Shown here: one piece after another, positions 39,471 through 60,748 of the stretch
How positions within the stretch are numbered: position 1 is the first letter of the stretch
Layout of the letters: each line of letters begins with the position of its first letter
DNA from: an uncultured Lentisphaeraceae bacterium
Lineage (GTDB): Bacteria > Verrucomicrobiota > Kiritimatiellia > RFP12 > DVOR01
Assembly (NCBI GenBank): GCA_949288955.1
Contig: CASEMS010000015.1
Location: 4,269-68,268, forward strand
DNA: 64,000 bases
Direction: 5' to 3'
The notes under the pieces: model-generated
What the model saw: only the letters and a program-made list of their open reading frames with translations
Databases searched by the model: none
What the model was told of the DNA's origin: nothing
Position numbers and translations under genes: made by a program

Positions 39471-39479
39471 TGCTATACT
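39471..39479 (+). promoter_or_regulatory. Extended -10 promoter element TGCTATACT (member of the conserved TGTGCTATAAT family)
   Basis: TATACT lies at 39474-39479, seven nt before the second ATG (39487) of dut. This implies a leaderless transcript. Confidence 0.4.
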
Positions 39480-39486
39480 AATGGGT

Positions 39487-39915
39487 ATGGAACTGCTCGT
39501 CGAACGCCTCACCGCCTCCGCACGTCTGCCCGCCTACGCCCATCCCGGCGACGCGGGTCTGGATCTCTGCGCCGACGCCGCCCTGACCCTGCCGCCCGGC
39601 GGCCGCGCCGCCGTGCCCACCGGCCTACGCCTGCGTCTGCCGCCTGGCACGGAGGGGCAGGTGCGCCCACGGAGCGGGTTGGCTCTGCGCCATGGTGTCA
39701 CCGTCGCCAACGCCCCCGGCACCATCGATGAGGGCTATCGCGGGGAGCTGAAGGTGCTCCTCGTCAATCTGGGCGACGCGCCTTTCGCCATCGAGCCGGG
39801 GATGCGCATCGCCCAACTCGTCGTCGCCCCCGTGCTTCGCGTGGCGGTGGCCGAGGGCGCCGTGGGCGAAGGGACGGATCGCGGCGCGGGCGGCTTCGGC
39901 TCGACCGGCCTTTGA
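39487..39915 (+). CDS. dut: dUTP diphosphatase
   Basis: dUTPase motifs ([21 protein letters not shown]-terminal GGFGSTG). Either ATG at 39481 or 39487 is possible. 39487 fits leaderless initiation from the upstream -10 box. Confidence 0.9.
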
Positions 39916-39930
39916 GAAAGGGAACTCGCC

Positions 39931-41217
39931 ATGACCCATGAGGAACTTTACGCCCGCGCCTGCCGCGTCATCCCCGGCGGCGTGGATTCGCCCGTGCGCG
40001 CCTTCAACGCCGTCGGTGGCACCCCCATCTTCGTCGCCTCCGGGAAAGGCTCGCATCTCACGCTGGCGGATGGCCGGGAGGTGGTCGATTGCTGTTGCTC
40101 CTGGGGCGCGATGATCCTGGGCCACGCCGACCCCGGCATCGTCGAGGCCGTGGCACAGGCGGCGGCCAGGGGCACCACCTTTGGCATCGCCACGCCCGCC
40201 GAGGCCGAGTTGGCCGAGCGCATCGTCGCGCAAATCCCCTTCGTGGACAAGGTTCGGCTGGTCAACTCCGGCACCGAGGCCGTGATGACGGCCATCCGCC
40301 TGGCCCGAGGCGTGACGGGACGCGACCTCATCATCAAGTGCGAGGGGTGCTACCACGGCCACAGCGACGGTCTCCTCGTCGCCGCCGGAAGCGGCGCGAT
40401 GACGGCCGGGGACGGCACCAAGCCCGCCAGCGCGGGCATCCCCGCCACCATCGCGGGCGAGACGCTCGTGGTGCCCTACAACGACGCGGGGGCCATCGCC
40501 GCCGCCCTCGGCGCGCACCCCGGCCGCGTCGCCGCCGTCATCCTCGAACCCGTGGCCGGAAACATGGGTTGCGTGCCGCCCCTGCCCGGCTATCTCCGCG
40601 CCGTGCAGGAGGCCGCCCACGCCGCCGGCGCGCTCCTCATCTGCGACGAGGTCATCAACGCCTGGCGTTTCCGCCTGGGGCTCTACTCCGAGGCCGCCGG
40701 CCTCACGCCCGACATCGTAACGATGGGCAAGGTCATCGGCGGCGGGTTCCCCCTCGCCGCCGTCGGCGCCTCCGCGGAAATCATGGACGCCTTGGCCCCC
40801 ACCGGCCGCGTCTACCAGGCCGGCACGCTCTCGGGCAACCCCGTGGCCGTCGCCGCCGCCATCGCGACCCTCGACCGTCTCGCCGCCGATCCGCCCTATG
40901 CCCGGATGGAGGCGATGGCCGCCGCCATCGAGGAGGGCCTCAACGCGGCCGCCGCCAAGCACGGCGTGCCCCTGCGCGTCCAGCGCCACGCCACGATTTT
41001 CACCCCCTTCGCCACCGACCGTCTGCCCGTCACCGACCTGACCGGCGCGAAGGCGTGCGACGCCGCGTGCTATGCCCGTTTCTTCCACGGGATGCTCGAC
41101 CGCGGCGTCTACCTCGAACCCTCGCAGTTCGAGGTCTGCTTCGTCTCCGCCGCCCACACCGAGGCCGACGTGGCGCACATCCTCCAGGCCGCCGAGGACA
41201 CCCTCGCGGCCCTCTGA
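39931..41217 (+). CDS. hemL: Glutamate-1-semialdehyde 2,1-aminomutase
   Basis: Class III PLP aminotransferase fold with the HemL N-terminus (RAFNAVGGTPIFV) and PLP lysine region (MGKVIGGGFP). Confidence 0.95.
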   Translation: MTHEELYARACRVIPGGVDSPVRAFNAVGGTPIFVASGKGSHLTLADGREVVDCCCSWGAMILGHADPGIVEAVAQAAARGTTFGIATPAEAELAERIVAQIPFVDKVRLVNSGTEAVMTAIRLARGVTGRDLIIKCEGCYHGHSDGLLVAAGSGAMTAGDGTKPASAGIPATIAGETLVVPYNDAGAIAAALGAHPGRVAAVILEPVAGNMGCVPPLPGYLRAVQEAAHAAGALLICDEVINAWRFRLGLYSEAAGLTPDIVTMGKVIGGGFPLAAVGASAEIMDALAPTGRVYQAGTLSGNPVAVAAAIATLDRLAADPPYARMEAMAAAIEEGLNAAAAKHGVPLRVQRHATIFTPFATDRLPVTDLTGAKACDAACYARFFHGMLDRGVYLEPSQFEVCFVSAAHTEADVAHILQAAEDTLAAL

Positions 41218-41245
41218 CATCCCCCACCGACACGGAGCGCGCACC

Positions 41246-58662: not shown

Positions 58663-58917
58663 ATGAACAAGACGCAACAAGACGCGCGCACCGCCATGTT
58701 GGAATGCCTGCGTAGCCACTACGGCCCACAACCTGTGGCGCGTCGTTCGCTTGCGGTCAGCCCCAACGGCGGGCTTCTCGTCGCCAACGACACCATCCGC
58801 GCCATCGAGCAGGCCCAGCGGGACTTCGCCGACGCGGCCGAACAACTCGGCGTGAGGGACGAGGATGACGTGCAGGCTCTCGTGGACGAGGTGCGCCACG
58901 GGAGGAAGTGGGCGTGA
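58663..58917 (+). CDS. Putative antitoxin of a VapBC-like type II toxin-antitoxin pair
   Basis: 84-aa ORF with a GGGAGG RBS, overlapping the start of the downstream PIN gene. No recognisable family. Confidence 0.5.
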   Translation: MNKTQQDARTAMLECLRSHYGPQPVARRSLAVSPNGGLLVANDTIRAIEQAQRDFADAAEQLGVRDEDDVQALVDEVRHGRKWA

Positions 58918-59309
58918 GGGTGTTGGTGGACACGAACGTCCTGGTCTCGACGTTCCTCTTCCCTCGCTCCAAGCCTGCCGTGGCCATCAGCCACATCGCC
59001 GTTTGCCATCAACTCTTCATCTGCGAGCAAACGGTCGCCGAGCTCGTGGATGTCCTGACGCGGAAGGCGGCACATCTGCTGCCGAAAGCCCGTGAGGTGT
59101 TGGAGCGGATGAGCTACGAACTTATCCCCGCGCTCGGCTTCATGGGCATCGCCATCCGAGATCTCTCCGACCAGCCCATCCTGAACGCGGCCATCGCCTA
59201 TAACATGGATGTCATCCTGACCGGAGACAAAGACTTCCTCGCGCTCCACCTCAGCCACCCACGTTGCCTGACTGCCGCGCAGTTCCTCGACCAAGAGGGG
59301 ATCGCCTAG
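58908..59309 (+). CDS. vapC: PIN-domain ribonuclease toxin (VapC-like)
   Basis: N-terminal VLVDTNVL with the first acidic residue, later D/E residues (ILTGDKDF), ~130 aa. GTG start overlapping the antitoxin stop. Confidence 0.75.
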   Translation: MGVRVLVDTNVLVSTFLFPRSKPAVAISHIAVCHQLFICEQTVAELVDVLTRKAAHLLPKAREVLERMSYELIPALGFMGIAIRDLSDQPILNAAIAYNMDVILTGDKDFLALHLSHPRCLTAAQFLDQEGIA

Positions 59310-59444
59310 CGCCATGCCCAAGCCTCCGCCCTGCCTTTCGCCCACCGCCGCCGCCACGCGACCTTCGCCAACGTGGTGCGTCTCTTGCCAAACACGCGCC
59401 ATGCGCACGCCCCCATGCCTCTCTCTGGCCCGGACAGGAGGGCT

Positions 59445-60671
59445 ATGCCCATGAGTGCGCGGCGCGATGCGATTTTCGCCCTAGGGCTGTGGCTGACGCG
59501 GGGCGACCGCCCCACCCAAGCGCTCCCGCCTGGGCCGGATCATGCCTTCGCCCTTGAATTGGTCGGGGCGGCGCTCCGTCACAAGGCCTCGCTGGAATGG
59601 GCGATTGGCCGGTGTTGCCGACCGCCCCGTGGGGAATTGCTCGCCGCGTTGCTCATTGGCGCGGCCCAACTCCTTGTCCTCCCCGGCGTGCCCGACCATG
59701 CGGCCATCGCCGAAACCGTGGAGGCCTGCAAGCCTATCGGCAAGGGGGCCGCACGGTTCGTCAACGCCGTCCTCCGCCGCCTCCAACGCGAACGCGAGAC
59801 GCTCCGAAACGCCCTTGCCGAGCAACCCGAGCACCTTCGCCTCAACCTCCCCAAGCCCCTCTGGACGCGGTGGCGCACCCACCTCGGCGCGGAACGCGCC
59901 CGCGCCATCGCCGAGGCCATCGCCCAACCCCCGCGCGTCAGCGTCCGCCCCCTCCCCCCCTTCCCTCCGCCATCGGGTTGCGAGCCGCACCCCGACGACC
60001 CCACCGGCACCCACCTCGTCCCCCACGGCGTCCGGATCGACGCATTGGAGGGCTACGCCGAGGGACGCTTCGTGGCGCAGGACGCCGCCACCCGCCACGC
60101 CATCGACCTCCTAGACCTCCGTCCCGGCCTGCGCGTCCTCGACGCCTGCGCCGCCCCCGGCGGCAAGACCGCCCAGATCGCCGCCCGCCTCGCCCCCTGG
60201 CCCGAAGGCTCCCGCCTCGTCGCCAACGAGCCCACCCCCGCCCGCGCCGAGACCCTCCGCGACACCCTCCGCCGCTGTGGGTTCCTCGACCGCGCCGAGA
60301 TCACGACGTTGGACGCCACCAAGCCCCCCGCGGACTGGCGCTTCGACCGCATTCTCCTCGACGCGCCCTGCTCCAACACCGGCGTCCTCGGCCGCCGCCC
60401 CGACGCCCGCTGGGCCTGGACGCCCAGCCGACTTGAGCGTGCCCGCCGCCTCCAAGGCACCCTTCTCGCGGCCCTCGCCCCCTGCCTCGCGCCCGACGGC
60501 ATCCTCGTCTACTCCACCTGCTCCATCGAACGGGAGGAGAACGAGGGCCAGCTTGCGGACTTCCTCCGCGCCCACCCCGGCTGGCGCGTCACGGAGACGC
60601 GGCAAACGCTGCCCACCCCCCTCCACGACGGAGCCTTCGCCGCCGCCCTGCGTCCCCCTGTCGGCGACTAA
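59445..60671 (+). CDS. rsmB: 16S rRNA m5C967 methyltransferase (NOL1/NOP2/Sun family)
   Basis: SAM-binding DACAAPGGKT, catalytic DAPCSNTGV and YSTCSIEREENE. Start at ATG 59445, which has an AGGAGG RBS. Confidence 0.85.
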   Translation: MPMSARRDAIFALGLWLTRGDRPTQALPPGPDHAFALELVGAALRHKASLEWAIGRCCRPPRGELLAALLIGAAQLLVLPGVPDHAAIAETVEACKPIGKGAARFVNAVLRRLQRERETLRNALAEQPEHLRLNLPKPLWTRWRTHLGAERARAIAEAIAQPPRVSVRPLPPFPPPSGCEPHPDDPTGTHLVPHGVRIDALEGYAEGRFVAQDAATRHAIDLLDLRPGLRVLDACAAPGGKTAQIAARLAPWPEGSRLVANEPTPARAETLRDTLRRCGFLDRAEITTLDATKPPADWRFDRILLDAPCSNTGVLGRRPDARWAWTPSRLERARRLQGTLLAALAPCLAPDGILVYSTCSIEREENEGQLADFLRAHPGWRVTETRQTLPTPLHDGAFAAALRPPVGD

Positions 60672-60739
60672 GCCAAAGGGAGGACGAGGCCACGCGCGCG
60701 CCACTCTGCGCGGAATGGCGGAACATACCGCCGCCGCTG

Positions 60740-60748
60740 TGCTATAAT
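60740..60748 (+). promoter_or_regulatory. Extended -10 promoter TGCTATAAT upstream of gpmI
   Basis: TGTGCTATAAT at 60738-60748. An AAAGGAA RBS and ATG 60777 follow. Confidence 0.5.

Follow-up and report, generated by a model that had tools for sequence, protein, structure and literature searches.

A recurrent extended −10 motif and candidate leaderless genes in a 64-kb segment of an uncultured Kiritimatiellia genome

A stretch of 64 000 nucleotides from an uncultured Lentisphaeraceae bacterium (GenBank assembly GCA_949288955.1, contig CASEMS010000015.1, positions 4,269 to 68,268), hereafter called the window at its full length, was analysed for a short word, TGTGnTATA(A/C)T, that recurs upstream of its genes. 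The word reads as an extended −10 promoter of the sigma-70 type (TRTGn followed by TATAAT) with no recognizable −35 element. With good confidence, it is taken to be the promoter that the primary sigma-70 holoenzyme uses in this Kiritimatiellia bacterium, with leaderless expression at about a third of the transcription units and a leader plus a Shine–Dalgarno (SD) sequence at the rest. An original prediction, made from the sequence letters, had listed five copies of the word and had proposed that they define the housekeeping promoter style of the organism and flag a substantial share of leaderless genes. The first idea was supported by the shape of the motif, its placement and its orientation towards genes, and the second by a peak in ATG spacing, its conservation in orthologues and the N-termini of homologues.

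Form and placement of the motif

Twenty-five sites from the window and its relatives were aligned. The conserved block was exactly 11 nt long, with the consensus given above and a hexamer, TA(T)A(A/C)T, close to TATAAT. A TG was found one base 5' of the hexamer in almost all matches, although the searches, which allowed at most one mismatch, did not force it. Positions left free by the search pattern were conserved nonetheless (T in 22/25 sites and G in 18/25, both 5' of that TG; T in 19/25, A in 22/25 and A/C in 25/25). The flanks and the −35 region of the aligned sites carried no information content, and a classical two-hexamer promoter scan of positions 41001–61000 returned zero promoters. 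A conserved block of 11 nt only, with no −35 signal, points to an extended −10 promoter that is independent of a −35 element.

The pattern GTGCTATAMT matched the window four times, always on the + strand (39470, 54975, 58628 and 60739), against 0.00 in shuffled sequences. With at most one mismatch allowed, TGTGCTATAAT gave six matches against 0.03 expected. The exact 11-mer is present twice, and the three other sites listed in the original prediction are one base off. All five listed sites exist, the first at 39469–39479 and not at 39471–39479. The core GTGCTATA, said to be common to all of them, is not that of the kinase site (42164–42174), where TGTGTTATAAT has a T in place of the C. The list was also incomplete. 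Further sites were sought with TGnTAnnnT on both strands in combination with the gene map, gene starts were re-examined by hand and with Pfam, and at least nine more sites were recorded on both strands. All the window sites that were examined are oriented towards a gene or an RNA gene downstream of them. In the relatives, which are referred to below by locus numbers, the tRNA genes of L003 and L170 are preceded by TG-extended boxes.

The gene identities originally proposed for the five sites were confirmed by Pfam: dUTPase, PAS-HisKA-HATPase kinase, metallo-beta-lactamase (MBL) fold, PIN toxin after an 84-aa open reading frame (ORF), and iPGM. The best genome matches of the adenine deaminase protein encoded at 55790–57430 are uncultured Kiritimatiellae metagenome-assembled genomes (79%, 76% and 68% amino-acid identity). 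Close homologues of dut and of a small lipoprotein gene are also labelled Kiritimatiellae, a class within the Planctomycetes–Verrucomicrobia–Chlamydiae (PVC) group. A Deinococcus or actinobacterial source, which the G+C content and the leaderless pattern had suggested, was rejected on the strength of the closest genome matches. Near-identical contigs (98.8–100% identity) are present in four public assemblies.

Spacing to the start codon and candidate leaderless genes

Motif-to-ATG distance statistics, proposed as a check in the original prediction, were computed on two nested sets. The first (217 kb) consisted of the window and nine related loci and was searched with at most one mismatch. An ATG lay at 6–7 intervening nt from the hexamer in 14/34 matches (P = 8e-12 for a background of 1.9% ATG per position, a value that overstates independence because the matches include orthologues). 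GTG was found there 0 times and TTG once, in a window of 68% G+C with about 90% G+C at third codon positions. Three loci were added to obtain the enlarged set (277 kb, window plus close Kiritimatiellia relatives), in which ATG was enriched at the same distance (17/41 matches; density 14.8 per 100 kb). Non-PVC control loci from the same search (1.29 Mb) gave an ATG in 2/25 matches and a density of 1.9 per 100 kb; in more distant metagenome loci bearing the kinase gene (784 kb), the values were 2/23 and 2.9 per 100 kb. Counted back from each ATG that opens a frame of 150 codons or more, TGnTAnnnT peaked at offsets 6 and 7 in the Kiritimatiellia set only. The geometry was found in about 12 gene families: dut, kinase, MBL, lipoprotein and GNAT in the window, and adenine deaminase, glycoamylase, hemB, lpxL, coaD, purD and lepA in relatives.

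The three genes for which leaderless translation had been proposed (dut, kinase and MBL) retained that status, and two candidates that had been missed, the lipoprotein gene ahead of ribD and a GNAT acetyltransferase gene, were added to them (Table 1). The distance of exactly 7 nt claimed for the three was correct for dut and MBL; it is 6 nt for the kinase gene.

The dut promoter begins 1 nt after the TAA stop (39466–39468) of an upstream glycoamylase-family gene. Most close dut homologues are 142 aa long, as is the window product when read from ATG 39487. In L165, the same 11-mer as in the window lies 7 nt before the dut ATG, with different spacer bases. The dut ATG is preceded by CGTGGTATACT at 8 nt in L167 and by TGTGCTATCCT at 9 nt in L166, whereas in L168 (55% G+C) dut is leadered and has a GGAG. 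A second in-frame ATG of the window gene, at 39481, stands merely 1 nt past the hexamer and is not present in L165. It is the start chosen in the public gene call (144 aa); the dut genes of L166 and L167 are called at 181 and 159 aa.

Since 18 nt separate the glycoamylase stop from the dut start, in an arrangement that L165 shares, dut and possibly other closely following genes might be expressed mainly by termination–reinitiation, the −10 box being a minor or inactive internal promoter. SD-free coupling of this kind seems to occur in the genome: the adenine deaminase gene begins 6 nt after the MBL stop with no SD (TGACCCCCCATG, 55784–55792), which suggests SD-independent reinitiation inside operons of the lineage. 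However, dut has no co-directional gene ahead of it in L166 and L167, where it heads its own unit and the motif is kept 8–9 nt upstream, so the box there must act as a promoter and not as an operon leftover. The 11-mer is also the same in the window and L165 while the adjoining non-coding bases differ, and reinitiation would account for only one of the five genes. Expression of dut mainly by this route was judged unlikely.

The histidine kinase heads an operon with a sigma-54 response regulator. Of 80 homologous loci, most match its N-terminus, M(R/K)xGF(F/L)DK (MRQGFFDK in the window), from residue 1. In the closest relative, L081, TGCGCTATAAT lies 7 nt before the ATG. In homologues no more than 52% identical, a TATAAT-like box is followed by a leader of about 36 nt; the gene is leadered in L082–L088. 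The kinase ATG of L082, L084–L086, L088 and L100 has a conserved element of the form TGACACTGTGA-N5-7-GTGTGACA about 40 nt ahead of it. This element, which may be an operator or an RNA hairpin, sits between the −10 box and the ATG and is not in the leaderless versions (window and L081).

The MBL gene is the first of an operon with the adenine deaminase and an aminotransferase. Its Pfam domains begin at residues 11–22, and L001 and L004 share its N-terminus, MR(V/I/F)CVLASGS. When the window is aligned with L001 by blastn, the match starts exactly at the motif; TGTGTTATAAT lies 7 nt before the ATG in L001, and the spacing is 10 nt in L004. The adenine deaminase orthologue of L003 is itself leaderless in geometry, behind TGTGCTATAAT. 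The promoter of the small-lipoprotein/ribD operon diverges from that of MBL, and such back-to-back pairs of boxes are also found in L001, L003 and L165. The small lipoprotein gene overlaps the ribD start by 8 nt. Its homologues form 33 clusters, mostly of 53–54 aa, and in its orthologues (51–68% G+C) the box is 6 nt (L171 and L169) or 7 nt (L170) from the ATG.

The GNAT gene is broken in frame near 45,820, and the independent assembly L161 also calls it in two pieces. A 63-aa ORF at 45780–45971 was considered as a small protein and rejected, as it is the N-terminal part of this frameshifted gene. Homologue support for the ATG as N-terminus covers dut, the kinase, MBL and the lipoprotein, and not the frameshifted GNAT. 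In the orthologues of those four genes the spacing is kept while the intervening bases change, which supports the leaderless geometry.

The motif could be a promoter without the nearby ATGs being starts, translation beginning either at an upstream codon or, from a leadered mRNA, further downstream. Public calls do pick other starts for dut and for the kinase (397 aa, from ATG 42163 inside the motif), and MBL has in-frame alternative ATGs at 54965 and 54983. Upstream alternatives of this type lie within or 5' of the −10 box, as does 54983 within the TATAAT hexamer, and would be absent from a transcript made there. The alternative MBL ATG is ATA in L001, and the dut alternative is missing from L165, as noted above. 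The extra kinase codons TGT TAT AAT end in A/T in a genome with G+C-rich third positions. The conserved kinase N-terminus and the homologue lengths of dut and the lipoprotein also favour the proximal ATGs, and no downstream start with an SD was found at these leaderless candidates. Starts elsewhere than at the proximal ATGs were considered quite improbable.

Leadered units and other features of the window

About 20 transcription units, assigned by eye in this one 64-kb window, were sorted into 5 with leaderless geometry, 2 borderline and about 12 leadered. The borderline units are hsdR, with an expected leader of about 2–3 nt only, and a fucosidase gene with TAAAAT, not preceded by TG, at 8 nt. 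Genes led by an SD start 22–49 nt after the hexamer. The SD sequences of leadered or internal genes are GGGAGG, AAAGGAA, AGGAG and AAAGGAGA (GGAG type); those of the 84-aa ORF/PIN pair and gpmI, with their leaders, are as originally described. Two of the leadered units have sigma-54 promoters (TGGCAC-N5-TTGC). The features are collected in Table 1.

Table 1. Promoter motifs, genes and other elements located in the window. Distances are intervening nucleotides from the −10 hexamer.
Feature	Position	Strand	Sequence or detail
Extended −10, dut	39469–39479	+	CGTGCTATACT; sequence reading
dut, dUTPase, leaderless candidate	39487–39915	+	142 aa; Pfam PF00692; 7 nt to ATG
Extended −10, histidine kinase/sigma-54 response regulator operon	42164–42174	+	TGTGTTATAAT
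PAS-HisKA-HATPase histidine kinase, leaderless candidate	42181–43356	+	391 aa; Pfam; 6 nt to ATG
Extended −10, MBL/adenine deaminase/aminotransferase operon	54974–54984	+	TGTGCTATAAT
MBL-fold hydrolase, leaderless candidate	54992–55783	+	263 aa; Pfam; 7 nt to ATG
Extended −10, small-lipoprotein/ribD operon	54757–54767	−	TGTGGTAGAAT
Lipoprotein-like gene, leaderless candidate	54589–54750	−	53 aa; 6 nt to ATG 54750
Extended −10, GNAT acetyltransferase	45979–45989	−	TGTGGTATACT
GNAT acetyltransferase, leaderless candidate	45514–45971	−	7 nt to ATG 45971
Motif before hsdR, borderline	24967–24977	−	TGTGCGATAAT; 9 nt to ATG 24957
Extended −10, 84-aa ORF/PIN pair, leadered	58627–58637	+	TGTGCTATACT; 25 nt to ATG 58663; GGGAGG 58652–58657
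Extended −10, gpmI, leadered	60738–60748	+	TGTGCTATAAT; 28 nt to ATG 60777; AAAGGAA 60763–60769
Extended −10, DUF1846 gene, leadered	29950–29960	−	TGTGTTATAAT; ATG 29900
Extended −10, GATase/lpxK/murJ operon, leadered	50709–50719	−	TGTGGTAAGAT; ATG 50667
Extended −10, fba, leadered	5210–5220	−	CGTGGTATACT; SD AGGAG; ATG 5172
Weaker extended −10, GAF/sigma-54 activator gene, leadered	5405–5415	+	TATGATACACT; ATG 5440
Promoter, hsdM/hsdS/SieB-like operon, leadered	28331–28341	−	TTTGTTACAAT; ATG 28308
Motif before Rfam DUF3800-VII match	25033–25043	+	TTTGCTACAAT; 8 nt to match
Rfam DUF3800-VII RNA match	25052–25132	+	53.8 bits (gathering score 36.2)
hsdR	22177–24957	−	
SieB-like (superinfection exclusion)	25099–25713	−	
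hsdS	25688–26791	−	
hsdM	26788–28308	−	
Perfect sigma-54 promoter	11352–11366	−	TGGCACGGAAGTTGC
Perfect sigma-54 promoter	12015–12029	+	TGGCACGGCGGTTGC
Type III glutamine synthetase gene	12066–14131	+	Seems frameshifted
Sigma-54 activators (two)	5440–6966, 43353–44702		
84-aa ORF and PIN-domain gene	58663–59309	+	
22-nt arrays	244–313, 425–496, 5283–5352, 11405–11496, 11733–11824, 30062–30188		
22-nt arrays (rest)	41979–42070, 45982–46073, 46287–46366, 50737–50872, 54858–54949		

The DUF3800-VII match lies between the hsdR start and the end of the SieB-like gene, antisense to the last codons of the latter, and the Rfam model begins 9 nt after the hexamer of TTTGCTACAAT, which gives the one indirect anchor for a transcription start about 7 nt past the hexamer. 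No DUF3800 protein gene was seen near it. Non-coding RNAs of the relatives were tried as a gauge of the distance from hexamer to transcription start and rejected: Rfam gave tRNAs only, and tRNAs are processed at their 5' ends, so they provide no calibration.

The 84-aa ORF/PIN pair is an insertion relative to L001 and L003, in which it is absent and the aminotransferase gene is directly followed by rsmB. It carries a perfect host-type promoter, TGTGCTATACT. The 84-aa ORF had no Pfam match. An island of lower G+C content (22177–28308; 0.56 in the 24–28 kb part) is occupied by a type I restriction-modification system whose genes all lie on the − strand. The island was probably acquired horizontally, though it has host-type promoters. 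The two perfect sigma-54 promoters face apart, one ahead of gltB and the other ahead of the type III glutamine synthetase gene. In the latter, the frame that starts at 12066 encodes the GSIII_N domain, and the one that ends at 14131 encodes the catalytic and C-terminal domains. The frameshifts in this gene and in the GNAT gene are either assembly errors or real pseudogene mutations.

The intergenic arrays consist of 2–5 copies of a 22-nt unit made of a 7-bp palindrome with a 3-nt loop and a 5-nt linker (consensus GGATCAG-CCG-CTGATCC-AAGGT; GACTCAGCCGCTAAGTC and GAGTCGGCCCCCGATCC are among the variants). Many are in divergent promoter regions, 50–150 nt upstream of extended −10 boxes. Two longer inverted copies (141 and 153 nt, 82–83% complementary) join 11449–11793 with 46004–46348. 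The arrays were not found in the 11–21 kb pieces of seven relatives (L001, L003, L081 and L165–L168) that were scanned, and they look like a species-specific element of the repetitive extragenic palindromic type.

Given this proximity, and a TGTG that is half of a CRP-type site, the 11-mer might be part of a dispersed intergenic repeat or a regulator binding site and not a promoter, but this is very improbable: the motif is non-palindromic, always oriented to the downstream gene and identical to a textbook TATAAT after TG, it also precedes tRNA genes and the Rfam match, and the stretch from it to SD-led starts has the length of an ordinary 5' untranslated region. Membership of a repeat element was rejected, as the copies of the 11-mer have unrelated flanks and the motif is still present in the scanned pieces of the seven relatives, where no array was found.

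Proposed mode of expression and comparison with known systems

On the basis of established sigma-70 knowledge, the near-consensus −10 hexamer and its TG(T)G extension (the '−16 TRTG' region) would be recognized by the primary sigma-70 holoenzyme, and the extension would make a −35 hexamer unnecessary. Transcription would start 7–8 nt past the hexamer. At about a third of the window units this position would be the A of the ATG, namely at dut, the PAS kinase operon, the MBL operon, the small-lipoprotein/ribD operon and GNAT, with hsdR as a near case. An mRNA that starts with AUG has no space for an SD, and its translation would follow the leaderless route, the 5'-terminal AUG being bound by a ribosome loaded with initiator tRNA. 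The other promoters (fba, DUF1846, GATase operon, hsdM, toxin pair and gpmI) would give a leader of roughly 15–45 nt with an SD.

Several points weigh against this reading. The transcription starts are predicted from sequence. The dut gene, close behind its neighbour, could also owe its translation to a polycistronic mRNA that reads through from upstream. Spacing is uneven among orthologues (8–10 nt in L167, L166 and L004), and some of these would be very short leaders. The leaderless fraction (5–7 of about 20 units) comes from a single window with units assigned by eye. Several matches in the spacing statistics are orthologous to each other, and the independent gene families number about 12.

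If expression at the AUG-initial units is leaderless, part of the Kiritimatiellia (the gut-associated relatives sampled, at 51–74% G+C) would be an unrecognized leaderless-rich lineage, with about a third of units starting at AUG behind a uniform, −35-independent TGTGnTATAAT. The trait would have arisen within the PVC group, since distant relatives with the same kinase gene lack the signal, and independently of Actinobacteria and Deinococcus-Thermus. On balance, this wider proposal was considered somewhat probable. A PVC-group lineage would thereby be added to the bacteria with frequent leaderless genes. Public Kiritimatiellia start codons are misplaced in such genes (dut at 144, 159 or 181 aa instead of 142, the kinase at 397 instead of 391), and those of coaD, purD and hemB in relatives are also wrongly called. 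The motif offers a simple rule for fixing starts and predicting operon heads in an uncultured, little-studied gut lineage. Orthologue pairs for the gain or loss of a leader are at hand in dut (leaderless geometry in the window, leadered in L168) and the kinase (window and L082–L088).

Extended −10 promoters have the form TGn in Escherichia coli; in Bacillus subtilis and other Gram-positive bacteria, sigma-A promoters carry the extension as TRTGn (the '−16 region'). Such promoters function even when the −35 is poor or missing. As in the Bacillus TRTGn, the TG of the window motif is one base 5' of TATAAT, with a T and a G two bases earlier. Only a minority of promoters in the model organisms have the extension, usually together with a recognizable −35; in the window, by contrast, nearly every promoter found has it, with no −35 detectable.

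In group C genomes as defined by GeneMarkS-2, a Pribnow box lies 6–8 nt before the first genes of operons, about 25–50% of transcripts are predicted to be leaderless, and the remaining genes, in mostly high-G+C genomes, have an SD (PMC6028130; bioRxiv 10.1101/2022.07.25.500264). Actinobacteria and Deinococcus-Thermus are the main group C clades named (PMC6028130). In ProTISA (2007), none of the 11 Chlamydiae/Verrucomicrobia genomes showed a TA-like signal (PMC2238952), and Kiritimatiellae are listed with 63% SD use in a 2024 survey (PMC10783764). No paper linking leaderless genes with Kiritimatiellota was found, the GeneMarkS-2 group C species lists being outside that check. The window shares its box spacing, leaderless share, SD use elsewhere and high G+C with group C organisms such as Mycobacterium tuberculosis and Deinococcus deserti. 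It differs in lineage, as a member of the Kiritimatiellia in the PVC group, and in its box, TGTGnTATAAT being far nearer to consensus than the loose TANNNT of group C. Very probably, then, the window displays the known group C leaderless pattern, with no new mechanism, in a lineage where it had not been noted before.

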